The translations under genes were made by a program, and so were the position numbers. Under the pieces are notes generated by a model. That model saw only the letters and a program-made list of their open reading frames with translations, was not told the DNA's origin and did no database searches. A stretch of DNA of 64,000 nt from the sequence record OM386653.1; one strand, given 5' to 3'. Position 1 is the first letter of the stretch. The number at the start of each line of letters is the position of its first letter. This document shows positions 7,321 to 45,416 of the stretch, piece by piece. This DNA comes from Escherichia phage vB_EcoM_ESCO8.

Positions 7321-8481
7321 ATGTTTACAGTATTCGGCAATCAAATCTTCCTGCGTCAGAAGTCTGGTACAGATATTGAAGAAATTCCAGCAGGAACTTT
7401 TGGTGTAGGTGTTACTCAAAGTGGCGAGTTCTTCCTGTATCCTAAAAACGATATGGAAGTCCCTTCAGTAACATACGGTGATACTGATGATAAATCAGAA
7501 CGTATTATCAAGACGTTCCTTAGCCGCAAAGGTAAAAACACAGGTGTTCTCCTTGAGGGTACGAAGGGTAGCGGTAAAACTTTGCAAGCTAAAATGCTGT
7601 CTTCTGCTCTTCGTGAAATGGGTATTCCTACTATTTCTATCGGTAGTGCTTTTAATGGTGAAGGCTTTATCAATTTTATGTCTAAAATCACACAACCTGT
7701 GATGATTATGATCGATGAATTTGATAAACTGTATGCTGAAAAAGATGCACAGGATGGTTTGCTTACCCTGCTGGATGGTGTTGGTGGCTATGACAAGCTG
7801 TTTGTATTGACTAAAAATGATGGTTATGTATCAGAATTTTTGCGTAATCGCCCTAGCCGTATTTTCTACAGCTTTAACTATAAGAAACTACCTAAAGCTA
7901 CTATGGATGATTATCTGGCTAAAAATCTGGAGAACAAAGCCTTTTTACCAGATTTTGAAACGCTTTATAATCTGTCCGTGGACTTGAACTTTGATATTGT
8001 TCAGTCATTAGTAGAAGAACTTAACCGTTACCCTAATGACAAATTCTCTGATGCACTTGCATTAATGGGTATCAGTATTACTGAACACCGCTATGCTGCA
8101 AAAGAAGTTAAACTTCTGAAAGTTAACGGTGTAGATCGTACAGGAGATGTTTCGGCAGATACCGATATTGACGGTATGACAGCACAGGGTTTGTTTAGCG
8201 GTAATCGTTATGTTGTAGCTGTAGACCATAAGCTAGGAGAAGAGCATCTTCCTGAAATGGAAGGAGTCGTTACCGTAGAAGATAAAGACGAAGAAGGTGA
8301 CTACTACTGGGGTGTAGACCGTATCTTGCTGACGTATGATGAAAAACACATCCGTACAATGGGCGGTGACGGTTATCACTTTATGTTCACCGATGATAAA
8401 GGTAACAACATTGAAGTTGTTATTAAAAACAAAGAACGTAAAAACTACACAGAGTATGTGTTTGGTGGTCGTTCTTACTAA
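7321..8481 (+). CDS. P-loop/AAA-type ATPase
   Basis: Walker A GTKGSGKTLQAK and Walker B-like VMIMIDEFDKL; function not assignable. Confidence 0.6.
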   Translation: MFTVFGNQIFLRQKSGTDIEEIPAGTFGVGVTQSGEFFLYPKNDMEVPSVTYGDTDDKSERIIKTFLSRKGKNTGVLLEGTKGSGKTLQAKMLSSALREMGIPTISIGSAFNGEGFINFMSKITQPVMIMIDEFDKLYAEKDAQDGLLTLLDGVGGYDKLFVLTKNDGYVSEFLRNRPSRIFYSFNYKKLPKATMDDYLAKNLENKAFLPDFETLYNLSVDLNFDIVQSLVEELNRYPNDKFSDALALMGISITEHRYAAKEVKLLKVNGVDRTGDVSADTDIDGMTAQGLFSGNRYVVAVDHKLGEEHLPEMEGVVTVEDKDEEGDYYWGVDRILLTYDEKHIRTMGGDGYHFMFTDDKGNNIEVVIKNKERKNYTEYVFGGRSY

Positions 8482-8489
8482 GTGATAAA

Positions 8490-8514
8490 AGGAGGCGAAA
8501 GCCTCCTTTATTTG
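8490..8514 (+). terminator. intrinsic terminator (aggaggc-GAAA-gcctcct) plus T-tract
   Basis: 7-bp GC stem with GAAA tetraloop followed by ttatttg. Confidence 0.65.
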
Positions 8515-8515
8515 T

Positions 8516-8719
8516 ATGGAGGGTATTATGGATCATTATTTTGTTTTTAAAGATAAAGTTGATACCGCAGGTGGTCACGTTGCTAAAAATGATCGTGACA
8601 TTAAAGAAGTATTAGGAGATCTGATTAACATTTTAGAACAAAAAGAGTTGCTTTTAGATAAGGATATTGCTAGACTTCTTGGTGTGGGGATAAGTGACAT
8701 ACAAAGATTACCATTCTAA
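8516..8719 (+). CDS. hypothetical small protein (true start may be ATG 8528)
   Basis: 67-aa ORF immediately after the terminator; GGAGGG precedes the second ATG. Confidence 0.35.
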   Translation: MEGIMDHYFVFKDKVDTAGGHVAKNDRDIKEVLGDLINILEQKELLLDKDIARLLGVGISDIQRLPF

Positions 8720-8730
8720 AGGGGAAGAAA

Positions 8731-8886
8731 ATGCTTACAGATGATGAATATAAAGCTATCCAAGAAAAACTAACGGAACTTGAAATTCTTGCTGTCAATA
8801 TTAAAGATCAATCACATGCTGGAAAGTTACTACATCAAGAGATCAATAAAATTAAGCAGATGATATTCTTTTGGACGGAGGATTAA
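8731..8886 (+). CDS. hypothetical small protein (51 aa, absent from ORF track)
   Basis: ATG behind AAGGGGAAG; translated by hand MLTDDEYKAIQEKLTELEIL...FFWTED; fills the gap before the HAD gene. Confidence 0.3.
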   Translation: MLTDDEYKAIQEKLTELEILAVNIKDQSHAGKLLHQEINKIKQMIFFWTED

Positions 8887-8888
8887 AA

Positions 8889-9545
8889 ATGACTGTTAAG
8901 CATATTTCTTTTGATGTATGGAATACTCTTATTACTGCTAATCCTTTGTATGCAGAAGAACGCAACAAGGTTATTGCCGAGTATGCCTCTTGTTCTGAGG
9001 TAGAAGCAGCTACCGTATATAAAGAGGTAAAAACTCTCCTGGATTTAAAAGCAGAAAAAGGCATTTGTGGAACATCTAGAAATGCTTGGGAAACACTTTC
9101 TGCTCGTTTGAACATTGATCTTGATAAAGTAGATGGGTTAAAAAGAGACTGTTTAGCAATGTTTATAAAACATCCTCCAACATTAAACCCTGAACTTTGC
9201 AAGAAGTTGGAAGAGCTAAGTTCAACCTATTCTTTGAGTATTAAAAGCAATACTAATTTTGTACCTGGTAGTTTTTTAGCTGTATATTCTGGCTTGACAA
9301 AATTACCATTCGACTTTATGCATTTTTCTGACGAGTTTTGCTTGTGTAAACCAGATCCTAGGTTTTTTAAACTCTCTTTTGATGAAATGGTAACGTTTGA
9401 TCTCGCACCAGAGGAGATCTTACACGTTGGAGATAGTTTGATCTATGATGGAAAAGCTGTTGACATAGGGATGAAGTTCTGTCATATTATTAATCCAGAA
9501 GACTTGTTGGCTAAACTTAAAAAAGAGGAACTTATTAATGCGTAA
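8889..9545 (+). CDS. HAD-superfamily hydrolase (phosphatase-like)
   Basis: Motif I ISFDVWNTLI (DxWxTL variant) and motif IV VGDSLIYDGKAVD; start set at ATG 8889 behind GGAGGA. Confidence 0.6.
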   Translation: MTVKHISFDVWNTLITANPLYAEERNKVIAEYASCSEVEAATVYKEVKTLLDLKAEKGICGTSRNAWETLSARLNIDLDKVDGLKRDCLAMFIKHPPTLNPELCKKLEELSSTYSLSIKSNTNFVPGSFLAVYSGLTKLPFDFMHFSDEFCLCKPDPRFFKLSFDEMVTFDLAPEEILHVGDSLIYDGKAVDIGMKFCHIINPEDLLAKLKKEELINA

Positions 9546-10395
9546 TCAAATTCAACATTTTGCTAATACTTTTACTAACCTGAAGGAAGCAAAATTTAAC
9601 ATTGCAGATTATTCCAAGCTAAAGTTTGGTAGTAACCAGGCAGCAAAAAGAATGGGGCGCATTCTGGCTGAAAGTTTCTTTTCCAAGTATGAAGAACGAC
9701 TGGTAAATGAAAGTTTTGTTGTTATTCCATCTCCATATAACTATGTGAAAAATGCAGCTACAGTGTTATCTGAACATTTTGTAGATCACCTCAACTACCT
9801 AATCTCTATCAAAGGAGGTAAAGCAGTGGAGTGGGATATCGTTCATCGTAAAGTGAGCTATATCAATGATTATGGATTTCTTAGCAAAGAAGATCGTAAG
9901 GCTTTGATCGATGGTGACACTTTCTCTATCAATCGTGATTTCTGGGGTAATAAAACTCTGATTTTCATTGATGATGTTAATATTACAGGAACGCACGAAG
10001 AAAAACTTATTGAAATTTTAGACAAAGAAGGTGTTGAAAACGATACGTTTTTCCTGTACTTTGCAAAGTATGAAGGTACAGAAGCCAATACCGAAGCTGC
10101 ACTTAACTTCAACTATATCAATAACCTGGCAGCTTTTATTAAAATGATTAAACAAGAAACTGATGCTAAATGTTTGGTTCGTCCTATTAAGTATCTAATG
10201 AGTCAAAGCGAAGTTGATTTTAAAATTGCACTTTCACAGCTTCCTTTGTATTATGTAGAACAACTGTTCTTTGGTTGCCTTGCAGAAGGCTACAATAACA
10301 TTGAAAAATATAAAGAGAACTTTGATTTCCTACGTCAATTTTTTGAAAGCAACATTATCAACAAATCTAATGTTAAAGGGGATTATTATGTCTAA
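9538..10395 (+). CDS. phosphoribosyltransferase (PRTase)-like protein
   Basis: PRPP-binding-type motif TLIFIDDVNITGTHEE; start overlaps the HAD stop, suggesting translational coupling. Confidence 0.6.
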   Translation: MRNQIQHFANTFTNLKEAKFNIADYSKLKFGSNQAAKRMGRILAESFFSKYEERLVNESFVVIPSPYNYVKNAATVLSEHFVDHLNYLISIKGGKAVEWDIVHRKVSYINDYGFLSKEDRKALIDGDTFSINRDFWGNKTLIFIDDVNITGTHEEKLIEILDKEGVENDTFFLYFAKYEGTEANTEAALNFNYINNLAAFIKMIKQETDAKCLVRPIKYLMSQSEVDFKIALSQLPLYYVEQLFFGCLAEGYNNIEKYKENFDFLRQFFESNIINKSNVKGDYYV

Positions 10396-11104
10396 TAAAG
10401 TAATGACTTTCGGAGATCCTATCACCAATATTACAGAAAAAGATTTTGGGCGTGTAGCAACAGATAAAGATGGTGTCTTAAGAATTCGTGTACAAGGTAT
10501 TACAGCACAGGATGAATATGCTGTGTATGTTTCAGGTCTTAACTATATTGATGATCGCATTACACAAAACTTTGCACTGATCGGTGGTGTAGAGAAAATG
10601 TATTGGGAAGATGAAATTGTAACAAGTTATCCGGCAGGTATCATTGAGGTATACGGTGATCTTTTAGCAGCAGCCGAGAGAGGCGATATAGACGCTATAG
10701 CACACTGCTGTAACTGTTTTTGCACTATGGGTAGTGGTATTGCACCAAAAATTAAAAGCAAGTGGCCTGGTGCGTTTAAAGCAGATTGTGCCACTAAACA
10801 TGGTGATTATAAAAAATTAGGTACGTTTACCAAATATATAGAAAACAATTTGACAATTTATAATTTATATGGACAATATGGTTATAGTCGTCGTGAGGAA
10901 GGTAAGCGTGACCTGAATTATGAAGCTATCTACAATGCGTTAGATAGTATGGGAGACGATGTTGTATCTTCAGGCGGTAAAATTGTAGGTTTACCAATGC
11001 TTGGTTGTGGTTTGGCTGGAGGTTCTTGGAGTATTGTAAAACTTATGATCGAAGAAACTCTAGTAAACAAAGGTTTAAATGTAATTGTTTACAAACTGAA
11101 ATAA
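10388..11104 (+). CDS. macro-domain-like protein (ADP-ribose-derivative binding/processing), tentative
   Basis: DAIAHCCNCFCTMGSGIAPKI resembles the macro-domain block DAIVNAAN...GGGV.GAI; C-terminal GKIVGLPMLGCGLAGGSW resembles the second macro block; start at ATG 10388 behind AAAGGGG. Confidence 0.4.
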   Translation: MSNKVMTFGDPITNITEKDFGRVATDKDGVLRIRVQGITAQDEYAVYVSGLNYIDDRITQNFALIGGVEKMYWEDEIVTSYPAGIIEVYGDLLAAAERGDIDAIAHCCNCFCTMGSGIAPKIKSKWPGAFKADCATKHGDYKKLGTFTKYIENNLTIYNLYGQYGYSRREEGKRDLNYEAIYNALDSMGDDVVSSGGKIVGLPMLGCGLAGGSWSIVKLMIEETLVNKGLNVIVYKLK

Positions 11105-11113
11105 GGAGAAAGT

Positions 11114-11320
11114 ATGGCAGGTGTTTTAGCAGTATTAGGTTGTTTTATTGTTGTGTTTTTGATTGTGTTAATCCCTAGTTGGCTACTGCTTTTAGCATAC
11201 AACTATATGATTGACATTATCGGCTTAGACTGGCATCATGTTCCTGTAACGTTTTGGAGTGTAGTCTGTGTGACGTTCATTCTTGCGGTACTTCGTGGTA
11301 TCTTTCAATCTAACAAATAA
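11114..11320 (+). CDS. small membrane protein (two predicted TM helices)
   Basis: 68 aa, strongly hydrophobic; AAGGAGA RBS. Confidence 0.45.
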   Translation: MAGVLAVLGCFIVVFLIVLIPSWLLLLAYNYMIDIIGLDWHHVPVTFWSVVCVTFILAVLRGIFQSNK

Positions 11321-11334
11321 GAGAGGATTTTTAT

Positions 11335-11583
11335 ATGCGTAAAGTAAATGTTGAAGTGCTTGAAAAATTTAGAAACACTCGTGATTGTACTATCGGCAAG
11401 GTTTACGAGGCTATTCTCCTTGAAGATGGAGATCAAGTTCCTGCCCCGTATCACGCCTTTAATGGTCAAATCAGCAAAGTGGAAGGTGGTCTTGCTATTT
11501 GCTTTATTGATGACGTAGGTGATGCTGTAGCTTTCCCTGTCATTAACAAAGAAGATAAACTTAAAATTACAGAACTGAACTAG
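11335..11583 (+). CDS. hypothetical protein
   Basis: 82-aa ORF behind AGAGAGGA; no motif recognised. Confidence 0.5.
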   Translation: MRKVNVEVLEKFRNTRDCTIGKVYEAILLEDGDQVPAPYHAFNGQISKVEGGLAICFIDDVGDAVAFPVINKEDKLKITELN

Positions 11584-11611
11584 TTGACTTTCTTTAAAAA
11601 CAGTTTATAGT
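11584..11611 (+). promoter_or_regulatory. sigma70-like promoter (TTGACT-16-TATAGT) upstream of the TerC-family gene
   Basis: -35 at 11584-11589, -10 at 11606-11611, read directly from sequence. Confidence 0.45.
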
Positions 11612-11623
11612 ATAAGACATAGA

Positions 11624-11642
11624 GCGGAGGATTGTCCTCCGC
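11624..11642 (+). other. 5'-proximal stem-loop (gcggagga / tcctccgc) in the TerC leader
   Basis: Perfect 8-bp inverted repeat with 3-nt loop just downstream of the predicted start site; no T-tract after it. Confidence 0.4.
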
Positions 11643-11660
11643 ATTAAAGAGGAGAAAAGA

Positions 11661-12638
11661 ATGCAACTGGGTTTCCCAATTATTGATGTGGTTGTTTTAG
11701 TGGGTATTTTAGTCTTGTCGATTTGTATTGACTTCTTTGGACACAGAGAAAACAAAGAAATTTCATTTAAATCTGCAATTGGCTGGTCAATTTTCTGGAT
11801 TGGGGTATCATTAGCCTACTATGGTTTTGTATACTTCCAACACGGTGCTGATTTTGCGAGCTTGTTCTTGAGTGGGTATGTGTTGGAGAAATCTCTTTCT
11901 GTAGATAACTTAGTAGTATTTGTAGCAGTATTCGCAAGTTTTGGTATTAAAAGCACACACTTGCAGCACAAGATTCTACTTTGGGGTATTGCAGGTGCGA
12001 TTGTCTTCCGAGGTGTGTTTGTAGCAGTAGGTACTTACTTGTTGAGTTTGGGCTGGTATGTTAATATCTTCTTCGGTGCTGTCATCCTTTTCTGTGCGGC
12101 TAAAATGGTATTCGCTGGAGATAATGATGCAGAAGTTGATTACTCTAAACACTGGGCTACTCGCATTGTTCGTAAGCTGTTCCCTGTATCTGATCAGATG
12201 GATGGTGAGAAGTTCTTCACAATCAAAAATGGTGTTCGTGTAGCAACTCCGGCTCTGGTTTGTGTGTTTGTAATGGAAATGGTTGACGTAATCTTTGCAG
12301 TAGACTCTGTTCCAGCAGTAATTGCAGTGACACAAGAACCTCTGCTGGTGTTCTCTTCGATGCTCTGTGCAATCTTAGGTTTACGTGCTCTGTTCTTTGT
12401 TCTTAGTGTTGCACTGAAGTATTTGGTTCATCTGGAGAAAGCAGTTATCGTAGTCCTGGTGTTTGTGGGTGTAAAACTGATGTATCACCCGTTTGCAGAA
12501 ACTCTGCACGCAAAAGTGAGTTTCCTGCCAGCACACATTGACCCGACGATCAGTATGTATATTGTGTTAGGTACTCTTGGGCTGGGTGTTCTTGCAAGTT
12601 TAATCTTCCCTGAAAAAGAAGACCAGGCTGTTGCTTAA
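11661..12638 (+). CDS. TerC-family integral membrane protein
   Basis: Polytopic membrane protein, 325 aa, with the TerC-family signature region GYVLEKSLSVDNLVVF; strong RBS AGAGGAGAAAAG. Confidence 0.75.
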   Translation: MQLGFPIIDVVVLVGILVLSICIDFFGHRENKEISFKSAIGWSIFWIGVSLAYYGFVYFQHGADFASLFLSGYVLEKSLSVDNLVVFVAVFASFGIKSTHLQHKILLWGIAGAIVFRGVFVAVGTYLLSLGWYVNIFFGAVILFCAAKMVFAGDNDAEVDYSKHWATRIVRKLFPVSDQMDGEKFFTIKNGVRVATPALVCVFVMEMVDVIFAVDSVPAVIAVTQEPLLVFSSMLCAILGLRALFFVLSVALKYLVHLEKAVIVVLVFVGVKLMYHPFAETLHAKVSFLPAHIDPTISMYIVLGTLGLGVLASLIFPEKEDQAVA

Positions 12639-12645
12639 TTCATTA

Positions 12646-12666
12646 AGCCCCTTCGGGGGCTTTATT
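12646..12666 (+). terminator. intrinsic terminator (agcccc-TTCG-ggggct) plus T-tract
   Basis: GC stem with TTCG loop followed by ttatt, directly after the TerC stop. Confidence 0.65.
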
Positions 12667-12677
12667 GAGGTGATCTG

Positions 12678-12884
12678 ATGGTGGTTTTACGTGTTCTTTG
12701 GATTCTGTTTGAAAATATTTGTTTTGCTCTAGGTTTGTTTTGTTTGATTTTTATCTTGACAACATATATTGATAACCATACAATTACTATCAACAGGAAC
12801 GGAGAACAGATGTATTGTTTCTCTAGGGATTTTAAAAATTGTGTTGAGATTTTAAATGAGAGGGTTACAAATGAAAAACATTAA
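12678..12884 (+). CDS. hypothetical small membrane protein (uncertain)
   Basis: 68-aa hydrophobic ORF behind GAGGTGA; overlaps the lipoprotein start. Confidence 0.25.
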   Translation: MVVLRVLWILFENICFALGLFCLIFILTTYIDNHTITINRNGEQMYCFSRDFKNCVEILNERVTNEKH

Positions 12885-13461
12885 ATCTTTTATTGTTGCA
12901 GTTGTTTTAGGTAGTGCATTGCTGGTAGGTTGTGATGATTCTGAAAATGTACAAAATCAACGTTACCAACAAACACCAAATCAGATGGTAGATGAACAAT
13001 ATGTAAATCAGCCTGCACCTCAAGTTGTTCAAGCAGCACCTGCACAACCTTCAACAGTTGTTGTGCAAGGAGGCGGCAGTGGTTCTTCTGGCGTAGGTGA
13101 GTTTGCTACAGGTATGCTTCTTGGTCATATGTTGAGTGGTAATAGTGGCGGTGGTGGTTATAGAGATGGCGGTAGCAATACAACAATTATCAATAACAAC
13201 GCTGCTCCTACAACTAATAGTAAAGCATATACAACACAAAAGCATAGGTTTTATGATAAACAAGGGAATACATATACAACCACTAAACAAAACACAATTA
13301 AGCAGCAAAGTGTACAAACGTATTCACGCCCATCAACAACAAAAGTGAATAGTGATTACTCTGCTCGTAAGTCTTACTCAAGTCCTATTAGCTCTTATAG
13401 TAAGTCTTCGAAAAGTTATTCTTCGTCGAAACGTAGTTTTAGTAGCTCACGTCGTCGTTAA
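12871..13461 (+). CDS. lipoprotein with glycine-zipper-like segment and Ser-rich C-terminus
   Basis: Signal peptide MKNIKSFIVAVVLGSALLVGC with lipobox LVGC; Gly-rich stretch GGGSGSSGVGEFATGMLLGHMLSGNSGGGG; start at ATG 12871. Confidence 0.6.
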   Translation: MKNIKSFIVAVVLGSALLVGCDDSENVQNQRYQQTPNQMVDEQYVNQPAPQVVQAAPAQPSTVVVQGGGSGSSGVGEFATGMLLGHMLSGNSGGGGYRDGGSNTTIINNNAAPTTNSKAYTTQKHRFYDKQGNTYTTTKQNTIKQQSVQTYSRPSTTKVNSDYSARKSYSSPISSYSKSSKSYSSSKRSFSSSRRR

Positions 13462-13496
13462 TAATTTAATACAGATTAAATAAGAAGGAGAAACAG

Positions 13497-14348
13497 ATGA
13501 AACTAGAAGTTGGTAAAGTGTATCGCCTGGAAGGTTGGATCTTTAATCAAGAAATTCTTGAGAAGAATAAAGATGGTTTTGAGTTTGTTGGTACTACCAA
13601 GGAAAGTATGCACAATGACGAATACTGTAAATTCGTTGGTAAAAATACAGGTCAAGAACAATTTTGCTTTAAGAGCGCAATCGGTGATTATGCTTCTGTA
13701 ATGCCAACACCAGAAAAGACTTCGAAGCAATATACTGTCTTTGGTGTAAAACTTGAAGAACTTGTAGAACACCCACGTTTTGAAGAGTTCAAGGTTGCTG
13801 CAATGCGCAAGCATTCTGAAATTAAAATACATAATTTGTTTGATTTAGAAGATCGGTTTGATATCTTTATGTATGATCGCAGGGAAAAGCATTTTGATGC
13901 AACGACTTCAAAATTTGCTGCAACAGAGGATATTAAAATCCTTGATGTTGATACCTTTCTTGAGAGTGTATCGTTTGTATTCATTCCTAAATACAAAAAA
14001 CGTAGTGATCATAAACGTGTGAAAGGAACTCCTCGTAAAAAACGTACTGTAAACAAAGCAACTTTGCACTTCACTTCTGGTGATAAATATACTCTCAAAG
14101 GGTTTGAAAGTGTTTTGTATGATGCTGGAACGGGTAATATCAAGTTTATCATTAAGGCAACCTACAAAGGTACGGTATTGCACGAAGAGGCTGTTACACT
14201 ACCTGTATTCGATATCTCTCGTGTTGAGGTACGGGGTGTTAAAGAGTCCTTCGATCTGGATTTCTTAACTGCTAATACCACGGGTTATGTTAATCTGGAA
14301 GCAGATGGAGCATTTATTACTACAAATTATTTAGATATGTTTGTTTAA
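13497..14348 (+). CDS. hypothetical protein
   Basis: 283-aa ORF behind AAGAAGGAGA; no motif recognised. Confidence 0.5.
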   Translation: MKLEVGKVYRLEGWIFNQEILEKNKDGFEFVGTTKESMHNDEYCKFVGKNTGQEQFCFKSAIGDYASVMPTPEKTSKQYTVFGVKLEELVEHPRFEEFKVAAMRKHSEIKIHNLFDLEDRFDIFMYDRREKHFDATTSKFAATEDIKILDVDTFLESVSFVFIPKYKKRSDHKRVKGTPRKKRTVNKATLHFTSGDKYTLKGFESVLYDAGTGNIKFIIKATYKGTVLHEEAVTLPVFDISRVEVRGVKESFDLDFLTANTTGYVNLEADGAFITTNYLDMFV

Positions 14349-14365
14349 TACTTAACTTGTGTTAT

Positions 14366-14391
14366 GATGGTGGTATAGAAGTATCACCATC
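14366..14391 (+). other. stem-loop (gatggtg ... caccatc) between ORF 13497-14348 and the TelA-like gene
   Basis: 7-bp inverted repeat with 12-nt loop; no T-tract. Confidence 0.3.
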
Positions 14392-14416
14392 TACTAAAGA
14401 ATATGGAGGAAATTGA

Positions 14417-15520
14417 ATGTCCAGTCCTTTTATCAGTGCCGTAAAAAGCAAACCGTCTGAAATGAGTGTATTCACGGCAACAACAGAAAAAAGTAAGTCT
14501 TTGTTTGCTCCAACTGCTATGGATGCAAGTCCTGTATATGCCCCTGCTGTTGCACGACCTGTACAAATGCTGCCTCCAATGTCTCGTGAAGAGATTGAAC
14601 AGGTTGGTGCTGATGCAGGACTTACTCTTCGTAACCTTAATGCTGAAGTGCTTAAACACCAGCGTTCATCTCAGGGAGATGAAATGAGTGAACGTTTAAC
14701 TGCGCTTATTAAGCAAGCAAAGCAACTTGATCCTAACTCTATTAAACAATCTAAAGGTTTAGGTAAACTAGTTAAGAAAGTTTTAGGTATGAAAGAAGAT
14801 TTGTTTGGAGAATTTGACACCATCAATAACCGTATTGAAGGTTTGGTAAAGACACTCCAAACAGACTTGAAAAAAGAAGAAGATTCTTTACGATATCTGC
14901 AACGTTTAGAAGAGGCTATTGCAAAATATGCCCTTAGTTTAAACAGGGATATAGAGCTTCTAACAGCTACTTATGAAAAAGAAGAAATTCGCCTTAATAC
15001 ACTGCCTGAAAATGAGGTAGAAGAGCGTCAACGTACTCGTGATACTATGGATCTGCTTGAAATTCGTATTGCAGACCTGAAAGCCTTACGCTTACTATGT
15101 GTTCAGATGGGGCCACGTGTACAAAGTATGCAGAAAGTATCTGCAAGTTTGATGCGATCAGCCCGTAATATTGTGAATAATGTTATCCCTGCTTACTCTG
15201 CAAACTTTTCTATGCATATTGAAAGTCTACGCCAGAAGAAAGCAGCCGATACACAGAACAATGTACTAAATGAATTTAATGCTGCTATTGCAATGGGTAG
15301 TGATTTGGCTGCACAAAACCAAATTGAAGCTACACAACTTGCTAATCGTCAAGTATTGGATATTGAAACATTACGTCGTGATCAAGAAAACTTGGTTAAA
15401 ATGTTGGAAGAAACTAACCGAATCAACACTGAAGCCCGTGCTGCTCGTATTGATTACATTCAAGAAGTGCAATCTCTTGAAGATGGTATGATTCAAACTG
15501 TTAAACGTGGTCTACTTTAA
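14417..15520 (+). CDS. TelA-like (toxic anion resistance family) protein, tentative
   Basis: 367 aa, largely alpha-helical/coiled-coil, size and neighbourhood with TerC, TerD and vWA genes fit TelA; no diagnostic motif confirmed by eye. Confidence 0.4.
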   Translation: MSSPFISAVKSKPSEMSVFTATTEKSKSLFAPTAMDASPVYAPAVARPVQMLPPMSREEIEQVGADAGLTLRNLNAEVLKHQRSSQGDEMSERLTALIKQAKQLDPNSIKQSKGLGKLVKKVLGMKEDLFGEFDTINNRIEGLVKTLQTDLKKEEDSLRYLQRLEEAIAKYALSLNRDIELLTATYEKEEIRLNTLPENEVEERQRTRDTMDLLEIRIADLKALRLLCVQMGPRVQSMQKVSASLMRSARNIVNNVIPAYSANFSMHIESLRQKKAADTQNNVLNEFNAAIAMGSDLAAQNQIEATQLANRQVLDIETLRRDQENLVKMLEETNRINTEARAARIDYIQEVQSLEDGMIQTVKRGLL

Positions 15521-15533
15521 GGAGAAATATATT

Positions 15534-15740
15534 ATGAATATTAAAATTTACAAACTGTCTGGTTCTATGATTGCTGTTCAGTATGATAATGAAGATCGTT
15601 ATGTTCTCCTCCAGGATGCTTGGTTAGATGATCCTAATGTATTCACTGTCCTGCGAGAACTACGTTCTGTCTATACCTATTCTTCTAAAGATGGTTTTGA
15701 CAATTCAACGATGGAATTGGTAAAAGAGGAGAATGTGTAA
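15534..15740 (+). CDS. hypothetical small protein
   Basis: ATG 15534 behind AAGGAGA. Confidence 0.4.
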   Translation: MNIKIYKLSGSMIAVQYDNEDRYVLLQDAWLDDPNVFTVLRELRSVYTYSSKDGFDNSTMELVKEENV

Positions 15741-15940
15741 TGAGTAAAGATATTCACTTAACTCGTGAAGAATTGCAAACCATTATGGAAGATGCTTTCA
15801 TTGATGGTTGGAAACAAGGTCAAGAATCAGATTGGTATGATGCCGAAGATTTTTTGTATTATCATATGACTGCACCTGTAGACGAGCAAACACACTCTGA
15901 AACAACTTTGGCTTTAATTGATCTTAAGGCTGGTGTATAA
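15740..15940 (+). CDS. hypothetical small acidic protein
   Basis: 66 aa; carries motif LTREELQTIMEDAFIDGWKQG shared with the next ORF. Confidence 0.4.
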   Translation: MSKDIHLTREELQTIMEDAFIDGWKQGQESDWYDAEDFLYYHMTAPVDEQTHSETTLALIDLKAGV

Positions 15941-16503
15941 TGGGGTGTTTTAGTTTCTTGTGCAAAGAGTCTGGTAATGCTGCTCTTTCTACCTCTTTTG
16001 ATGGCTCTCCTTGCTACCTATTTCTTTTGAAAGGTGGTAAGGTTGTCGAAGAGATGTATGGGAATTATGATAGCTATGGTAGTGTTTTCTCTAACGAAGA
16101 AGATAAACATGGCAATCGTAAAAGATTTAAGTGGTCTATGCCTTGGGAAGAAGTTTGTAATTTGATGTTCTCTTCCGATCTTGGAGATGGGATTGCTCTG
16201 GTATTAGAAGAGCACTTTACAGGTGAGATCCCAACAGAAAGATCTGAAGAAGATCCTAACCAGGGTTGGGGTGATGGAGAAGAAGATCCAGATTGCTTCT
16301 TCAACACTGAAAATAATAAATTTAAACGTGTTGACAATCCTTACCACAAAGTGCATAATACTTGCATTGAGACAGAAGAAGACTCAAAGCTAGAAATTGA
16401 AGATGATTTAGTTGTAACTATCTCTTTAAACGAGTTGCAAAAAATCACTAGAGAGGCTTTCTATTTAGGTTGGAAAGTAGGTAAAGGAGGAGATAGTGCT
16501 TAA
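15940..16503 (+). CDS. hypothetical acidic protein
   Basis: 187 aa; C-terminal LNELQKITREAFYLGWKVG echoes the motif of the upstream ORF. Confidence 0.45.
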   Translation: MGCFSFLCKESGNAALSTSFDGSPCYLFLLKGGKVVEEMYGNYDSYGSVFSNEEDKHGNRKRFKWSMPWEEVCNLMFSSDLGDGIALVLEEHFTGEIPTERSEEDPNQGWGDGEEDPDCFFNTENNKFKRVDNPYHKVHNTCIETEEDSKLEIEDDLVVTISLNELQKITREAFYLGWKVGKGGDSA

Positions 16504-16765
16504 ATTTAATATCAAAGACGACAAATCAGATGAACCTAAATGTTTTGGAGAACTTGACGTAGGTGATACATTTGTATATTATGTTGCCTATCAAGATTCT
16601 GGTTTAGATACGTTCAGAAACTTAGTGTTTATTAAAGTTAATACAAACCAAGCAATGTGTCTGAACGGTTCGCAAAGAGGTCAACTTAGCTGTATTTCGT
16701 ATGATACAGAAATGGTAGAAGTGGATTTAGAAGTTACTAACATTACACTCAGAAAGGAGAAATAA
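16496..16765 (+). CDS. hypothetical protein
   Basis: GTG start behind AAAGGAGGA; 89 aa. Confidence 0.4.
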   Translation: MLKFNIKDDKSDEPKCFGELDVGDTFVYYVAYQDSGLDTFRNLVFIKVNTNQAMCLNGSQRGQLSCISYDTEMVEVDLEVTNITLRKEK

Positions 16766-16766
16766 T

Positions 16767-17561
16767 ATGTCCAATAAAATCAGTCTTAAAAAACGTCAAG
16801 AAACTCTTACCGTATCTCTGCGTAAGAAAAAGATTAACGATGTTGTTCTTCGTGTCGGTAGCGCCTTAGATATTTCGGGTAGTATGTGTGAGCTGTATCG
16901 TGATGGCACTGTTAGTGATTTTGTAGGTAAGCTACTGCCGTTTGGTATGAAGTTTGATGATAATGCACAGATTGACATGTGGGCTTTCAATAGTTCTTCT
17001 TTTGAACTGCCTCCTGCAACGGCTGATGTATATGATGATTATGTCGGCTCTTGTATGTCTAATGTTTGCATCAATGGTGGTACAGCTTATGCTCCAGTAA
17101 TGCAAGAGATCTATGATACATACTTCGGTAGTGTACCTATGAAAAATATTACACGCGAAGTCGTTGAGTATGAAGAAGTTCCGGCTAAGGGTTTCCTTGC
17201 TAAACTAACTGGTAAAAAAGAACGTGTAGAAGTTACACGTACTGTTGTAGAACAGGTTGTAGATACTGATGCACAAGTTGATCGTACTCCTGCAATGATT
17301 TTCTTCCAAACTGACGGGGAGAACATGGATACTTCAGCAGTACGTAGTTTGCTGAACAAACACCGCAACACTCCTGTTTACTGGTTTATGGTTGGTGTAG
17401 GTAATGCAAACTTTAAATTCCTGAAAGACTTGGCAAAAGAATACGATAACGTTGATTTTATCGGTATTGCAGATTTGTCCTTGTCTGACGAAGAACTTTA
17501 CGATAAACTGCTATCCGAAGAGTTTGGCGAGTGGGTTAAAAAATTTGGAGCAAAAGCGTAA
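16767..17561 (+). CDS. von Willebrand factor A (vWA) domain protein, TerY-like
   Basis: MIDAS-type motif ALDISGSM (DxSxS) near the N-terminus; 264 aa. Confidence 0.6.
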   Translation: MSNKISLKKRQETLTVSLRKKKINDVVLRVGSALDISGSMCELYRDGTVSDFVGKLLPFGMKFDDNAQIDMWAFNSSSFELPPATADVYDDYVGSCMSNVCINGGTAYAPVMQEIYDTYFGSVPMKNITREVVEYEEVPAKGFLAKLTGKKERVEVTRTVVEQVVDTDAQVDRTPAMIFFQTDGENMDTSAVRSLLNKHRNTPVYWFMVGVGNANFKFLKDLAKEYDNVDFIGIADLSLSDEELYDKLLSEEFGEWVKKFGAKA

Positions 17562-17568
17562 AAAACGC

Positions 17569-17596
17569 TTGACTTTGTAGAAAAGATTAGTAAAAT
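17569..17596 (+). promoter_or_regulatory. sigma70-like promoter (TTGACT-16-TAAAAT) driving the TerD gene
   Basis: -35 at 17569-17574, -10 at 17591-17596. Confidence 0.5.
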
Positions 17597-17633
17597 AGAC
17601 AACGTAAATTAACAACAAAGGAGATAATAAATT

Positions 17634-18230
17634 ATGACTCAGAAAATTTCCCTGAAAAAAGGTTCTAGCGAAAAAGTTTCTCTGAAAAAGATTGCACCAG
17701 CACTGAAACGCATTCGTCTGGAATTCTCTTGGAAATCTAACGAAAAACTGGATCTGGATGTTAGTGCTCTGATTTGCCGACACAATGCATCTGGTCTGCC
17801 GGAACTGTTGTCTCCTCGCCACCTGGTATGCTACGCACAGAAATTTGATCCTGAACGTTCTACTTTTGCAGGTGAAGATGTTCGTGACGGTGTAGGACAA
17901 ATGGAGCAGATTGATGTTACACTGGATAATATCTCTGCTGAAGCACAGGAAATTGCATTCGTAATCACTATTGATGACGAAACGGGTAAGAAACGCCTTG
18001 GTCACGCTACCGAAGGTTTCCTTAAAATCTTCGATGATGAACGTAACGTTGAACTGCTGGATTTTGACTTCTTGGCTCCAGAACTTGCAGGTAATACCAT
18101 TTGCCACGTTGCCTCCCTGGTGCGGGAAGATAGCGAATGGAAACTGAAAGCATATGGTGTAGGTAAAGCTGGACTTGACATTTATGATGTAGTTAAAGCG
18201 TTTGGCGCTGGCGACGATTGGTTCGAGTAA
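17634..18230 (+). CDS. TerD-domain protein
   Basis: N-terminal ISLKKGSSEKVSLKK, LDLDVSALI, GEDVRDGVG and C-terminal WKLKAYGVGKAGL blocks characteristic of TerD; strong RBS AAGGAGA; codon choice strongly biased to CTG/CGT/GGT/GAA/AAA. Confidence 0.8.
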   Translation: MTQKISLKKGSSEKVSLKKIAPALKRIRLEFSWKSNEKLDLDVSALICRHNASGLPELLSPRHLVCYAQKFDPERSTFAGEDVRDGVGQMEQIDVTLDNISAEAQEIAFVITIDDETGKKRLGHATEGFLKIFDDERNVELLDFDFLAPELAGNTICHVASLVREDSEWKLKAYGVGKAGLDIYDVVKAFGAGDDWFE

Positions 18231-18239
18231 TAAATCATA

Positions 18240-18262
18240 GCGCCCTTCGGGGCGCATATTTT
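18240..18262 (+). terminator. intrinsic terminator (gcgccc-TTCG-gggcgc) plus T-rich tail
   Basis: Perfect 6-bp GC stem with TTCG tetraloop followed by atattttaaat. Confidence 0.7.
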
Positions 18263-18282
18263 AAATAGAAGAGGAGAAAACA

Positions 18283-18885
18283 ATGGGTATTACTTTAGAA
18301 GGTCAAAAACTTATTCGCAGCGGTAATTTTCTTGTGGATATTGACAACAATGAAGATTATGCTTTAGAAGTTAGTGATGTACTGTTTAATGCTTTGCAGT
18401 CTGGTTTCAATTTTGAAGTTTATGAAGTAATCCGTGGAACTAAACTCAGAGAAACCCTTGGATCAACTAGTGATGTTTATTCTGCGATCTGGCAATATTT
18501 CGGGTTAATGGATGGTAAGACATACCTTACTGATAGTTATTCTGAAGATGTTGTTTATCTTGATATGGAAGAGTTTCGTCGTCTGTTCAAAAGTGAAGAA
18601 AATGAAGAAGAGGGTGAACTTTTTGAAGGAATTACTCTCGAAGGTAATGTTGAAATTGTGTATAAAGCAGGAAAAACATTCCACTTGCGTGAAAACGGTA
18701 AAGCAAAAGTTGATTTTGTAAACAAGACAGTAACAACTGAACATAATTATCTTAAAGATGGTCAACCAGCTTTTGAACGTGTAACAATTAAATTTAAAGT
18801 ATTGTCTGCACTAGTTACGGATCAAGAACGTATTGATTTTGTAGAAGATGGTGTAGTAACTCATACAAAGGTTTACAACATCTAA
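18283..18885 (+). CDS. hypothetical protein
   Basis: 200-aa ORF behind GAGGAGAAAA; internal echo GITLEG appears twice. Confidence 0.5.
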   Translation: MGITLEGQKLIRSGNFLVDIDNNEDYALEVSDVLFNALQSGFNFEVYEVIRGTKLRETLGSTSDVYSAIWQYFGLMDGKTYLTDSYSEDVVYLDMEEFRRLFKSEENEEEGELFEGITLEGNVEIVYKAGKTFHLRENGKAKVDFVNKTVTTEHNYLKDGQPAFERVTIKFKVLSALVTDQERIDFVEDGVVTHTKVYNI

Positions 18886-18917
18886 CAGGGTGTAAGAGGG
18901 GGATAATCCCCCTCCAC

Positions 18918-18946
18918 TTGCAAAACAGCCTCTTCTGTGTTACAAT
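18918..18946 (+). promoter_or_regulatory. sigma70-like promoter (TTGCAA-17-TGtTACAAT, extended -10)
   Basis: -35 at 18918-18923, TG at 18938-18939, -10 at 18941-18946; upstream of the SleB-like hydrolase gene. Confidence 0.5.
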
Positions 18947-18977
18947 AAAAGTTCGTTTAACAAAATAGGAGGCAAGT

Positions 18978-19487
18978 TTGTCAATAAAAACCTTTGTCGC
19001 AATTGCGTTACTATCCTTAACTGCTTTTACATTTACACCTGTTGTGGCGCAAGCCGAAGCTGCAAACGTAAAAACTGCTAAAGTAGTTCACAAGTGTACA
19101 AAGCGTGATAGTAAAGAAAATCTATTAGCTTGTGCAATCTATGCAGAAAGTCGTAATCAAGGAAAGCGAGGTATGTCTGCTGTTGGTAATGTAGTATTGA
19201 ATAGGGCTAGAGATTCATATTTCCCTGATACTATAAAAGAAGTTTTGTTTCAAAAAGGACAATTCTCTTACACAAAGACATTCAACGTTATGGAACGTGA
19301 TAAGTGGAAGGAAGCTAAGACTATAGCAGAACGTCTACGTTATCTCGATACGCATTTTCCAGAATTACGAATTGCATTAGATATTACAAAAGGAGCATTA
19401 TACTTTAAAAAATCTACAATAAGAGCACACTGGGAAAAAGATATGGTTCTAGTGTACCGCTACAAAGAACATCAATTCTATCGCTAA
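18978..19487 (+). CDS. secreted cell-wall hydrolase, SleB/CwlJ (Hydrolase_2) family
   Basis: Signal peptide ending VVAQA; conserved blocks LLACAIYAESRNQGKRGMSAVGNVVLNRA and VLFQKGQFSYT; TTG start behind AGGAGG. Confidence 0.65.
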   Translation: MSIKTFVAIALLSLTAFTFTPVVAQAEAANVKTAKVVHKCTKRDSKENLLACAIYAESRNQGKRGMSAVGNVVLNRARDSYFPDTIKEVLFQKGQFSYTKTFNVMERDKWKEAKTIAERLRYLDTHFPELRIALDITKGALYFKKSTIRAHWEKDMVLVYRYKEHQFYR

Positions 19488-19497
19488 GGAGATATAG

Positions 19498-19776
19498 ATG
19501 AAAGATGGCGTTATCGTTGCAAGTTATCTTGTTATTGGTCTTACAGAAGAGGATGTACATTACATTAGGAAACATTTAGAACAGTTTGCAATGATGTTCA
19601 TCGAAGACGAAGACAATATGGATGTTTATTCAATTGAAATGATCAATGATAACGTCTATCCTTGTATAGCTTTACGAGTCGATGAAGATGTTTGGGAACG
19701 TTTTTCACGTAGTCACGATAATGTTGAATGTTCTATGGTTATGTCACAAAGCAACATACTGGGAGTGTTACACTGA
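19498..19776 (+). CDS. hypothetical small acidic protein
   Basis: 92-aa ORF behind AGGAGA. Confidence 0.45.
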   Translation: MKDGVIVASYLVIGLTEEDVHYIRKHLEQFAMMFIEDEDNMDVYSIEMINDNVYPCIALRVDEDVWERFSRSHDNVECSMVMSQSNILGVLH

Positions 19777-20006
19777 TGGCTGATGTTATTGAAGTTAACT
19801 TTAAAACAAAAAAGAAAGTTGATAAGTATACAATCTTAAAAAATATTTGCGTTGTGTGCTTCAATTCTGTAATATATGACTCACGTAAGGGCGAAAATGA
19901 AAATGAACCTTACATCCAGATTTCTAAAGGTAAAGGGCAGTGTATCTGCAAAAACTGTGCTGTAGCAATTAAGGAGGTTGTAGATGAAAACCATTGGGAT
20001 CAATGA
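19776..20006 (+). CDS. small zinc-ribbon protein
   Basis: CVVC ... CICKNC four-Cys pattern; ATG overlaps the upstream stop (TGATG). Confidence 0.4.
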   Translation: MADVIEVNFKTKKKVDKYTILKNICVVCFNSVIYDSRKGENENEPYIQISKGKGQCICKNCAVAIKEVVDENHWDQ

Positions 20007-20178
20007 TACTGGCGAAGTTGTAAAATCTTGGGATGATCTTAGTGGTATCCCTACAGATAAATTGATTAAACTGCGTGATGTTTGTCGTGATCATCTTAAT
20101 GAAACGTATAAAGAGTATATGGAAGCACGAGATCACAGTTTAGCTATCCAAATGGAACTCGCAAAACGTAATCAATAG
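19984..20178 (+). CDS. hypothetical small protein
   Basis: 64-aa ORF behind AAGGAGG. Confidence 0.4.
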   Translation: MKTIGINDTGEVVKSWDDLSGIPTDKLIKLRDVCRDHLNETYKEYMEARDHSLAIQMELAKRNQ

Positions 20179-20235
20179 GTAAAACCATTTAGACTTTTTA
20201 GTCTAAAAATGCTAAAGTAATAATACGGAGGGAGT

Positions 20236-20799
20236 ATGATATTTCACATAACTCCCTATCTTTCTGGAGATATTGGAAAAGGTATCAATGACACAATAAG
20301 TGTCTTACCAGAAGATAGTTGGATTTGCCTAAGAGACATTGATACAATGTTTCTTCTTCCAGAACAACCTGCTTGGCTGGAATCAATAGTCCGTTCAAAT
20401 CCTGATTTTGATGTTCTTGGTGCATCTTGTAATAGATTGGGATCAACATATCAATTATTTAATAATGAAAGAAGTGAAGATCCGAATATACTACACCACA
20501 TTGAGATTGCAAAAAGAGCACATCTAGAATGGGGAAACTCAATAGAGGAAGTACCTACAGATGCTATCTTAGCAGGATTCTTTCTTCTCTTTCGTAAGAG
20601 TCTGTGGAATGAAATCCCTTTTGAGGAAAGATCAATACAGTTTGATATAATTTTCTCTAAAGCATTGCACGCTAACAATAAAAGGCTAGGTTTACTACGT
20701 GGGTTATATTTATTTCACACATACCGTTTAGGTAATGATGATCCTAGAAAAGCTATTTCACACCTTTTACATTGTCAAGACATGAATAAAATTATTTAA
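20236..20799 (+). CDS. hypothetical protein, possibly nucleotide-sugar transferase-like
   Basis: DxD-like LRDIDTMF; AT-rich codon usage; assignment weak. Confidence 0.3.
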   Translation: MIFHITPYLSGDIGKGINDTISVLPEDSWICLRDIDTMFLLPEQPAWLESIVRSNPDFDVLGASCNRLGSTYQLFNNERSEDPNILHHIEIAKRAHLEWGNSIEEVPTDAILAGFFLLFRKSLWNEIPFEERSIQFDIIFSKALHANNKRLGLLRGLYLFHTYRLGNDDPRKAISHLLHCQDMNKII

Positions 20800-20808
20800 G
20801 GAGTTATT

Positions 20809-45408: not shown

Positions 45409-45416
45409 TTTTACTC

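Follow-up and report, generated by a model that had tools for sequence, protein, structure and literature searches.

Ter systems are widespread in pathogens, and their function has been unsettled for some three decades. Ter loci of bacteria and plasmids have been reported to inhibit phages and to make cells resistant to colicins (Whelan 1995, as quoted in PMC8115787 and PMC8386662). Comparative genomics, in the form summarised in PMC7824862 and PMC8115787, has linked Ter proteins to phosphoribosyltransferase (PRTase) and HAD enzymes that would make a nucleoside-like metabolite. In phages, an "alx-like ter cluster" of phi92 has been mentioned (PMC11162368), subsets of terC, terD, terF and telA were noted in phiKp34 (PMC8386662) and PhiPsa374 (PMC9796965), and a role in superinfection exclusion or competition was proposed for the phage Ter systems described by Iyer et al. 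in 2021 (PMC7824862). The role of phage Ter genes is called unknown in the phage papers (PMC11162368, PMC9796965). The locus compared with these systems here is a 9.5-kb block at positions 8731-18262 of a 64,000-nucleotide stretch of Escherichia phage vB_EcoM_ESCO8 (OM386653.1), the whole of which is referred to below as the window. The block encodes TerC, TerD, TelA and a TerF-type vWA protein together with a HAD hydrolase and a PRTase of the PRTase_3 family, and comparison with other phage sequences indicates that the Ter genes and the HAD-PRTase_3 pair are a genuine module.

All named genes of the block are co-directional on the plus strand and lie where a first-pass annotation, which had seen in them a Ter-like stress module of seven protein families, had placed them. 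Family calls were made by comparing Pfam bit scores with the gathering cut-offs; NCBIfam, PADLOC and Rfam were scanned as well. Each of the seven families scored above its cut-off in this profile hidden Markov model (HMM) check, the HAD family at the borderline, and the motifs quoted for them (FDVWNTL, GDSLIYDG, IFIDDVNITGT, EKSLSVDN and DISGSM) were all recovered in the translations. The HAD-superfamily hydrolase is encoded at 8871/8889-9545 (PF00702, 27.0 bits vs 26.4) and overlaps by 8 nt with the gene at 9538-10395 for a type I PRTase of the ComF-like PRTase_3 family (PF15610, 143.5 bits vs 28.7). A TerC/Alx-family integral membrane protein is specified at 11661-12638 (PF03741, 133 bits vs 27.8) and a TelA-family protein at 14417-15520 (PF05816, 118 bits vs 30, spanning profile positions 13-330 of 332). 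A vWA-TerF-like protein of the TerF C-terminal type (16767-17561; PF10138, 134.5 bits vs 29.4) and a single-domain TerD (17634-18230; PF02342, 98.2 bits vs 25.3) complete the set. The seventh family is represented by a macrodomain protein, discussed separately below.

PRTase_3 loci were gathered from phage and plasmid collections, from contigs encoding distant homologues and from a scan of IMG/VR, and all block proteins were mapped onto these loci by iterative HMM searches. A HAD protein of the same subfamily is encoded directly upstream of PRTase_3, often in an overlapping frame, in 27 of the 27 loci. They include phages of Xanthomonas, Rhizobium, Caulobacter and Brevundimonas as well as the Rhizobium plasmid pRL10, and the pair thus ranges over phages of γ- and α-proteobacteria and rhizobial plasmids. 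Eight viral contigs from outside the Stephanstirmvirinae, the subfamily to which the window belongs, carry TerC, TerD, TelA and/or a TerF-type vWA gene at most 10 kb from HAD-PRTase_3, in at least five different arrangements. TerD follows PRTase_3 directly on its 3' side in three contigs (L010, L022 and L028), and in a fourth (L026) a compact, Pfam-verified cluster of 7.8 kb has the order TerC-x-vWA-x-TerD-TerD-x-TelA-HAD-PRTase_3. As TerD was found in only 143 and TerC in only 176 of 50,697 phage records (about 0.3 %), the co-location of Ter genes with HAD-PRTase_3 goes far beyond chance. Genomes in which the cassette is not linked to Ter genes may still have TerD, at a distance of 27 kb in CcrColossus and of 165 kb in XaC1.

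Some further features of these loci were recorded. On pRL10 (L008), a conjugative megaplasmid of Rhizobium johnstonii, HAD-PRTase_3 forms a stand-alone two-gene unit (9370-10843) about 900 bp from repA. The PRTase of this plasmid is 42 % identical to that of the phage, and the pair is present on fifteen Rhizobium plasmids. A tblastn search for PRTase_3 in enterobacterial ter plasmids gave no match; the plasmid matches came only from Rhizobium, Sinorhizobium and Hymenobacter. A conserved protein of about 300-350 residues lacking a Pfam match is encoded directly downstream of TerD in the unrelated viral contigs L010 (11518-12429), L011 (1505-2554), L022 (11436-12386) and L028 (11515-12465), and a different protein of about 300 residues occupies the same place in L009 and L031. 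Neither type has a counterpart in the window.

The window is of the Justusliebigvirus type (phi92-like, Stephanstirmvirinae); phi92-like phages are a lytic myovirus group. The 9.5-kb stretch is 100 % identical to that of Escherichia phage outra (MN850645.1), the block DNA is 97.5-99 % identical to the other listed Justusliebigvirus genomes (98.0 % for phi92), and 53 phage records span at least 80 % of it. The GC content of the block equals that of the remaining phage sequence. In phAPEC8, a Phapecoctavirus, the order is NrdD-NrdG-small open reading frame (ORF)-HAD-PRTase-macro-transmembrane (TM) protein-TerC-TM protein-lipoprotein-...-TelA-...-187-aa ORF-89-aa ORF-vWA-...-TerD-SleB. Amino acid identity between Justusliebigvirus and Phapecoctavirus amounts to 81 % for TerD, 78 % for TelA (phAPEC8), 71 % for TerC, 67 % for vWA, 65 % for PRTase, 50 % for HAD and 49 % for the macro protein, as compared to 81 % for NrdD. 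TerD is 100 % identical across many Justusliebigvirus phages even though the block DNA differs by some 2 %. These genes are thus under strong purifying selection.

The claim that Ter and PRTase/HAD genes belong together, and are not unrelated singletons, is thus borne out by the synteny with phAPEC8, the eight further viral contigs and the L026 cluster. The published comparative-genomic link on which that claim had drawn is real, as far as the summaries in PMC7824862 and PMC8115787 go. As for the proposed comparison of gene order, related phages keep it, but the bacterial ter operon is not copied: TerB and the TerD paralogues are absent, and PRTase_3 was not found in the enterobacterial ter plasmids searched.

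A few database entries with block genes carry unexpected host names. Five records (MG065639, MG065645, MG065656, MG065689 and MG065650) are labelled "Campylobacter phage" with Campylobacter jejuni as host, yet they are close to E. coli phages; four of them are 97.8 % identical to the block, while the fifth (B15) has TerC, TerD and PRTase_3 of the Phapecoctavirus type. Block genes of the latter type were also found in "Acinetobacter" ABPW7 (TerD) and "Pseudomonas" PsgM04F (PRTase_3). The host labels of all these records look doubtful.

The PRTase_3 protein looks like an active enzyme. Residues D145, D146, T150 and G151 of its loop for phosphoribosyl pyrophosphate (PRPP), along with about 40 other positions, are invariant among 36 diverse homologues. 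Its AlphaFold2 (AF2) model, with a mean predicted local distance difference test (pLDDT) score of 91.7, consists of a type I PRTase core followed by a family-specific C-terminal helical domain. Foldseek matched this model to hypoxanthine-guanine-xanthine PRTases (HG(X)PRT), H. pylori ComF and PyrR with E values of 2e-6 to 1e-3, whereas a sequence search of the PDB gave E 0.086 for the best match and no solved or characterised close relative. With the invariant DD..TG loop and the high-confidence type I fold, PRTase_3 is very probably an active PRPP-using enzyme, and the product of the HAD-PRTase_3 pair is probably a ribose-linked small molecule. A function of PRTase_3 in the salvage of nicotinamide adenine dinucleotide (NAD) was considered and rejected: the "cytidyltransferase" annotated near the cassette in a Rhizobium phage belongs to the NUDIX proteins, and the loci show no recurrent partner resembling NMNAT. 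In the HAD protein, motif IV (GDSLIYDG) is canonical. Its motif I reads D-V-W-N-T, with a Trp in place of the Asp+2 general acid/base, and does not conform to the DxDx(T/V) motif of HAD phosphatases. This Trp is kept in the distant HAD homologues of contigs L009, L010 and L011, and the FDVWNTL motif also occurs in 2om6, the nearest PDB entry.

Of the Ter proteins, TerC scores 323 bits (vs 246) with NCBIfam TIGR03718, the Alx subfamily model named "TerC/Alx family metal homeostasis membrane protein". Its sequence contains eight or more hydrophobic segments as well as the two conserved acidic motifs, EKSLSVDN at residue 76 and DSVPA at 215. TelA is all-helical and has no TM segment. Its AF2 model, built with 20 homologues, shows long helices throughout at low confidence (pLDDT 57.6); a Foldseek search with this low-confidence model was empty at E ≤ 1e-3, the weaker hits being long-helix bundles of a generic kind (among them BAR domains and AhlC/ClyA), and a TelA profile search of the PDB gave coiled-coil noise only. 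The metal ion-dependent adhesion site (MIDAS) of the vWA protein is intact, with DISGS at residue 35 followed by the T of GGTAYAP and the D of QTDGEN. Over residues 5-180, TerD can be aligned to two family members of known structure, 2kxt (from Klebsiella, E 9e-15) and 3ibz. The block has one gene with a TerD domain, the TerA/Z/E/F paralogues being absent, and the TerB profile matched none of the block ORFs. The TerC proteins of some Phapecoctavirus phages (Mt1B1_P17, tuntematon, SKA64 and phiWec179) are 93-95 % identical to that of Justusliebigvirus, as against 71 % for most of the genus, which suggests that terC has been exchanged between the two genera.

The macrodomain protein (10388-11104; Pfam Macro, 29 bits vs 22) had been counted among the members of the set, a place that its distribution does not support. 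Macro relatives were found in 2,890 phage records as against 156 for PRTase_3 and 143 for TerD, which makes them about 20 times commoner. Its C-terminal part of about 150 residues is a macrodomain of the TARG1/DarG/SCO6735 class with PDB matches to 5e3b, 2fg1, 4j5q and 5m31. A PADLOC DarG model gave 47 bits, and the NCBIfam DarG equivalog 48 bits against a cut-off of 250; with a score so far under the cut-off, the protein is not DarG itself. The macrodomain is 31 % identical to Tk.4 of phage T4 (BLASTP, E 3e-17), which was identified by transposon sequencing and a clean knockout as the anti-DarTG2 factor AdfM (bioRxiv 10.1101/2025.11.20.689424, a 2025 preprint). The independent distribution together with the homology to Tk.4 argues for a function separate from the Ter module. 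The macro gene is most likely to encode an ADP-ribosyl hydrolase of the AdfM/Tk.4 type that counters DNA ADP-ribosylation by DarT-type enzymes, by analogy with T4, and probably is an independent counter-defence gene sitting by chance between the PRTase gene and terC. Only 69 of the 2,890 matches cover at least 80 % of the protein. The N-terminal extension of about 90 residues (10388-10660), which has no family match, occurs only in records of the Justusliebigvirus type.

The block is embedded in a long co-directional arm for replication and nucleotide metabolism. Here, genes for a UvrD helicase, tRNA-synthetase-like proteins, NrdD/NrdG and an AAA-type ATPase precede the block, and genes for a SleB-type cell-wall hydrolase, glycosyltransferases, a primase/helicase, DNA polymerase and Dam methylase follow it. 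The nucleotide-metabolism genes reported in the first-pass annotation are thus nearby, NrdD/NrdG lying upstream with the ATPase gene (7321-8481) between NrdG and the block. In the closely related phage PaulScherrer (Bas60, L013), the DNA polymerase and UvrD/Rep helicase of the flanking region (17716-21030 and 44294-47068) are annotated as intein-containing precursors. A terminator-like hairpin at 8488-8509 (+), just 3' of the ATPase gene, marks the upstream boundary; the record of phage Paula has a terminator at the corresponding position. Downstream, the boundary is formed by a GC-rich terminator-like hairpin at 18240-18255 (+), GCGCCCTTCGGGGCGC. Sigma-70-like promoter sequences are present ahead of terC (TTGACT-16-TATAGT, 11584-11611, +) and ahead of terD (TTGACT-16-TAAAAT, 17569-17596, +; a consensus match only), in the only two sizeable intergenic gaps. 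The 78-nt gap upstream of terC contains, next to the promoter-like site, a stem-loop (11624-11642, +), and in phAPEC8 a promoter is annotated at the position matching that site. The Rfam scan of the window gave no family at the gathering score and thus neither a yybP-ykoY riboswitch nor an alx leader before terC. As transcription signals, these consensus sites are no more than suggestive.

The identities of the genes, their conservation and linkage, and the fold and PRPP loop of the PRTase are established above; on this basis we infer how the block may work. It would be a Ter system in reduced, phage-adapted form, with two parts that are coupled and with unrelated genes lying in between. The first part would consist of membrane-proximal effectors, namely the Alx-type TerC in the inner membrane and the soluble TerD, TelA and TerF-type vWA proteins; lineage-specific small membrane proteins and a putative inner-membrane lipoprotein are interspersed with the effector genes. 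In the second part, the HAD-PRTase_3 pair would convert PRPP into a ribose-5-phosphate-linked compound, which would then be processed by the HAD enzyme to what is most likely a nucleotide- or nucleoside-like ligand. The Ter proteins would be tuned or triggered by this molecule, for which TerD is the likeliest receptor. Expression in the pre-lysis period would follow from the location of the genes in the arm for replication and nucleotide metabolism and from their sigma-70-like promoters. The Ter complex would keep the inner membrane and the ion balance of the infected cell intact until programmed lysis and would exclude secondary invaders, such as superinfecting phages and membrane-damaging colicins. 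This combination of an inner-membrane Ter complex of reduced composition, a PRPP-derived ligand, membrane and ion protection and exclusion of invaders is put forward tentatively, at a confidence slightly short of even. It is the best supported of the readings considered and takes up the proposal of Iyer et al. (2021; PMC7824862) as well as the phage and colicin phenotypes of plasmid ter loci. A further-reaching form of the proposal, in which HAD-PRTase_3 is a self-contained mobile pathway and its product a virus-made second messenger that is read by TerD and switches the TerC/TelA/vWA effector so as to exclude rivals or delay premature lysis, is possible but rather unlikely. If true, the signalling system would be owned by the virus and not by the host, and a first biochemical handle on Ter systems would be available.

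Several observations weigh against the proposed two-part system. HAD-PRTase_3 occurs without a nearby Ter gene in Rhizobium phages, on plasmid pRL10 and in several viral contigs, and TerC is present in phage groups in which PRTase_3 went undetected, so the two parts are separable. The lack of the Asp+2 general acid in the HAD protein makes the step from nucleotide to nucleoside uncertain; with Trp at this position, the "phosphatase turning nucleotide into nucleoside" of the literature is not secure. A similar problem exists for TerD. The canonical acidic Ca2+-binding motif, which we take from the structure work on Klebsiella TerD to be GDN(R/L)TG(E/A)GDGDDE, is degenerate: the TerD of the block has GEDVRDGVGQMEQ where Klebsiella TerD (2kxt) has GDNRTGEGDGDDE, and most of the acidic Ca2+ ligands are gone. 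The TerD of contig L009 retains GDNRTGAGAGDDE. No PADLOC defence-system model matched the Ter, HAD or PRTase proteins, and a literature search turned up no experiments done with a phage Ter gene. Lastly, promoter-like sites (46 vs 40.1) and terminator-like sites (8 vs 6.4) were not enriched over shuffled sequence, and the transcription-unit picture is therefore drawn only from their intergenic placement.

The alternative that survives best would have the Ter proteins manage metal ions. In such a scheme, export of Mn2+ (or Zn2+/Ca2+), or else the loading of proteins with metal on the periplasmic side, would be the task of the Alx-type TerC, while divalent cations would be bound by TerD and by the MIDAS of the vWA protein. 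The outcome would be a cytoplasmic metal level adjusted to the phage enzymes, or a metal supply for exported phage proteins. The high score of TerC with the metal homeostasis model and the intact MIDAS motif fit this scheme, as do the SleB-type cell-wall hydrolase encoded directly downstream and the occurrence of TerC without the PRTase in several other phage groups. Among the cellular relatives, E. coli Alx is described as a Mn2+ exporter (PMC10197570), B. subtilis TerC proteins have been described as metal chaperones (PMC12096827), and Klebsiella TerC contributes to zinc resistance (PMC12054061). However, the Ca2+-binding motif of TerD is degenerate, terC has no Mn-sensing leader of the kind that precedes bacterial alx/ykoY genes, and the conserved partnership with TelA and the PRPP-using pair would be left unexplained. 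On balance, metal management is a real candidate that must nonetheless be called unlikely.

A lower probability, in the range of the improbable, is given to the idea that the cassette, the macro gene, the Ter genes and the filler ORFs merely adjoin in a hypervariable early region and have no joint function. The macro gene and the 187-aa ORF described below indeed have clearly independent distributions, HAD-PRTase_3 is found without Ter neighbours, and several ORFs differ between the sister genera. For the Ter genes and HAD-PRTase_3 such an explanation has against it their co-location in eight unrelated contigs, in shuffled orders and including the 7.8-kb cluster, the presence of TerD or TerC in just some 0.3 % of phage records, and a conservation of the Ter genes similar to that of NrdD.

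The first-pass annotation had also suggested that the PRTase and HAD enzymes, with or without the macro protein, make a ribosylated molecule for DNA modification of the phage or for countering nucleotide-signal-based defences. Such a role agrees with the position of the block in the nucleotide-metabolism arm, with NrdDG upstream and glycosyltransferases, primase/helicase and DNA polymerase downstream, and with the resemblance of the PRTase core to purine and pyrimidine PRTases. Across the 27 loci, however, Ter membrane-stress proteins alone recur as neighbours of the cassette, and enzymes that modify DNA or degrade signals do not; the macro gene is explained separately as an AdfM homologue, and the NAD-salvage lead failed. 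As there is no link between the cassette and either DNA modification or the breakdown of defence signals, the suggestion has become highly improbable. That the block is cargo providing the bacterium with tellurite or xenobiotic resistance, as might be implied by the names of the families and by the tellurite phenotype that ter operons have in bacteria, is hardly credible at all, since a lytic carrier leaves no host that could profit in the long run, the block lacks TerB and the TerA/Z/E/F paralogues found in the resistance operon, and the authors of the PhiPsa374 study rejected the same idea for their own phage (PMC9796965).

Interleaved with the genes of the two-part Ter system are a number of others, all on the plus strand. 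Acidic ORFs of 67 aa (8516-8719) and 51 aa (8731-8886) precede the HAD gene. Between the macro gene and terC, a small protein with two TM segments (11114-11320) and an 82-aa acidic ORF (11335-11583) are encoded, and terC is followed by genes for a small protein with one TM segment (12678-12884) and a lipoprotein (12871-13461). In phAPEC8, the 67-aa ORF (49 % identity), the 2-TM protein (60 %), the 1-TM protein (49 %) and the lipoprotein (36 %) have counterparts, while none was found for the AAA-type ATPase or for the 51-aa, 82-aa, 77-aa and 200-aa ORFs. The lipoprotein was correctly recognised as such in the first-pass annotation: it is Ser/Gln-rich, has a pI of about 10 and carries the lipobox LVGC with Asp at +2. 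As Asp at this position is the inner-membrane retention signal in E. coli, retention in the inner membrane is implied. The acidic unknowns noted at the same time do exist, the small ORFs of the block having a pI of 4.2-4.9, but they are not Ter components.

This holds for the four acidic ORFs of 68, 66, 187 and 89 aa at 15534-16765, which are regarded as filler and not Ter-specific. The 187-aa ORF (15940-16503) is 76 % conserved between Justusliebigvirus and Phapecoctavirus. Its N-terminal domain of about 135 residues (MGCFSFLC...) is highly conserved and has no Pfam family; hundreds of phage proteins from metagenomes, marine and food samples among them, share it at 50-65 % identity. The domain is found in varied early and replication-gene contexts and is common in unrelated contigs without Ter genes. 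As a Ter component, the 187-aa ORF was rejected on account of these contexts and because the gene is missing from the otherwise intact Justusliebigvirus block L018. The 66-aa ORF (15740-15940) and the C-terminus of the 187-aa ORF (16420-16503) have the motif ..ELQ.I...AF..GWK.G in common, and a 136-aa ORF of phAPEC8 matches this element twice.

A 283-aa protein (13497-14348) is restricted to the Stephanstirmvirinae, with homologues in related loci only, and has no credible match in Pfam, NCBIfam or PADLOC; PADLOC hits to Cas12g (E ~2e-3, 15 bits) were dismissed as noise. The 200-aa acidic protein encoded at 18283-18885, just beyond the block, is absent from phAPEC8. A homologue of its C-terminal half is encoded between terC and the vWA gene in the Ter cluster of the unrelated contig L026, a weak hint that the protein might be an accessory Ter protein. 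That the 283-aa and 200-aa ORFs are hidden TerD or TerB paralogues was rejected: profile support was lacking and the two are unrelated to each other. The small acidic ORFs are lineage-specific filler, and the 283-aa ORF is likewise confined to the lineage.

The block as such is already known, contrary to the novelty implied in the first-pass annotation: it has been annotated in the phi92 group since 2012, and Iyer et al. described Ter systems of phages that include PRTase and HAD in 2021. Several Justusliebigvirus records already carry the labels tellurite/toxic-anion resistance protein, TerC, stress protein, VWA protein, phosphoribosyltransferase, hydrolase and phosphatase/macrodomain; in the record of outra, most block genes are labelled "hypothetical protein". 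What the present comparison adds is the putative assignment of the macro gene as a separate counter-defence gene of the AdfM type, the invariant order of HAD before PRTase_3, and the non-canonical motifs of HAD and TerD, which weaken the textbook reading of their chemistry. The phi92-like phages carry a minimal version of the Ter system, in which TerD, TerC and the vWA protein are each encoded once, along with TelA and a biosynthetic cassette of two genes. Since a phi92-like carrier plates on E. coli K-12 and has relatives in the BASEL collection (PaulScherrer, Bas60), these phages form a convenient system for the study of the predicted metabolite and membrane phenotype. The chance to use them in this way dates back to the publication of the phi92 genome, and the main value of the block lies in its use as a tractable model for an old question.

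When the block is placed alongside the described systems, gp172-gp187 of phi92 and the copies in Justusliebigvirus and Phapecoctavirus represent the same locus, with no substantive difference; three features of the window are missing from the Phapecoctavirus version, namely the AAA gene, the N-terminal extension of the macro protein and the 200-aa ORF. The phage Ter systems of Iyer, Anantharaman, Krishnan, Burroughs and Aravind (2021; PMC7824862), from Acinetobacter phage vB_AbaM_ME3 and Caulobacter jumbo phages, are made up of the same parts: a PRTase and a HAD protein for "signal biosynthesis", TerD, TerC, a TerF-type vWA protein and TelA. In contrast to those, the module discussed here resides in a non-jumbo phage of 145 kb that infects E. 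coli K-12, and it is split by lineage-specific ORFs and a putative AdfM-type macro gene. With the bacterial and plasmid terZABCDEF-terWXY loci of IncHI2 R478, E. coli O157:H7 and Klebsiella, the block has TerC, the TerD fold, a vWA protein of the TerF/TerY type and the "nucleoside-like metabolite" gene set in common. It differs from these in lacking TerB, in having one TerD instead of TerZ/A/D/E/F, and in the addition of a TelA of the telAB/yceH lineage; its TerD is only distantly related to that of Klebsiella and has the degenerate Ca2+ motif. The yceCDEFGH operon of Bacillus subtilis, which consists of three TerD genes, TerC, YceG and TelA/YceH, likewise combines TerD, TerC and TelA without TerB. 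Compared to this operon, the phage block adds the TerF-type vWA protein and HAD-PRTase_3 and has one TerD and not three. Among single proteins, Tk.4/AdfM of T4 has a macrodomain homologous to that of the block protein, which adds its N-terminal region of some 90 residues; E. coli Alx belongs to the same NCBIfam subfamily as the phage TerC, the gene of which lacks a regulatory leader or riboswitch. The conserved TerC, TerD, TelA and vWA genes and their association with PRTase and HAD enzymes, by which Ter systems are recognised in the sense of Anantharaman, Iyer and Aravind, were both found in the block, which thus takes its place among the Ter systems of phages.

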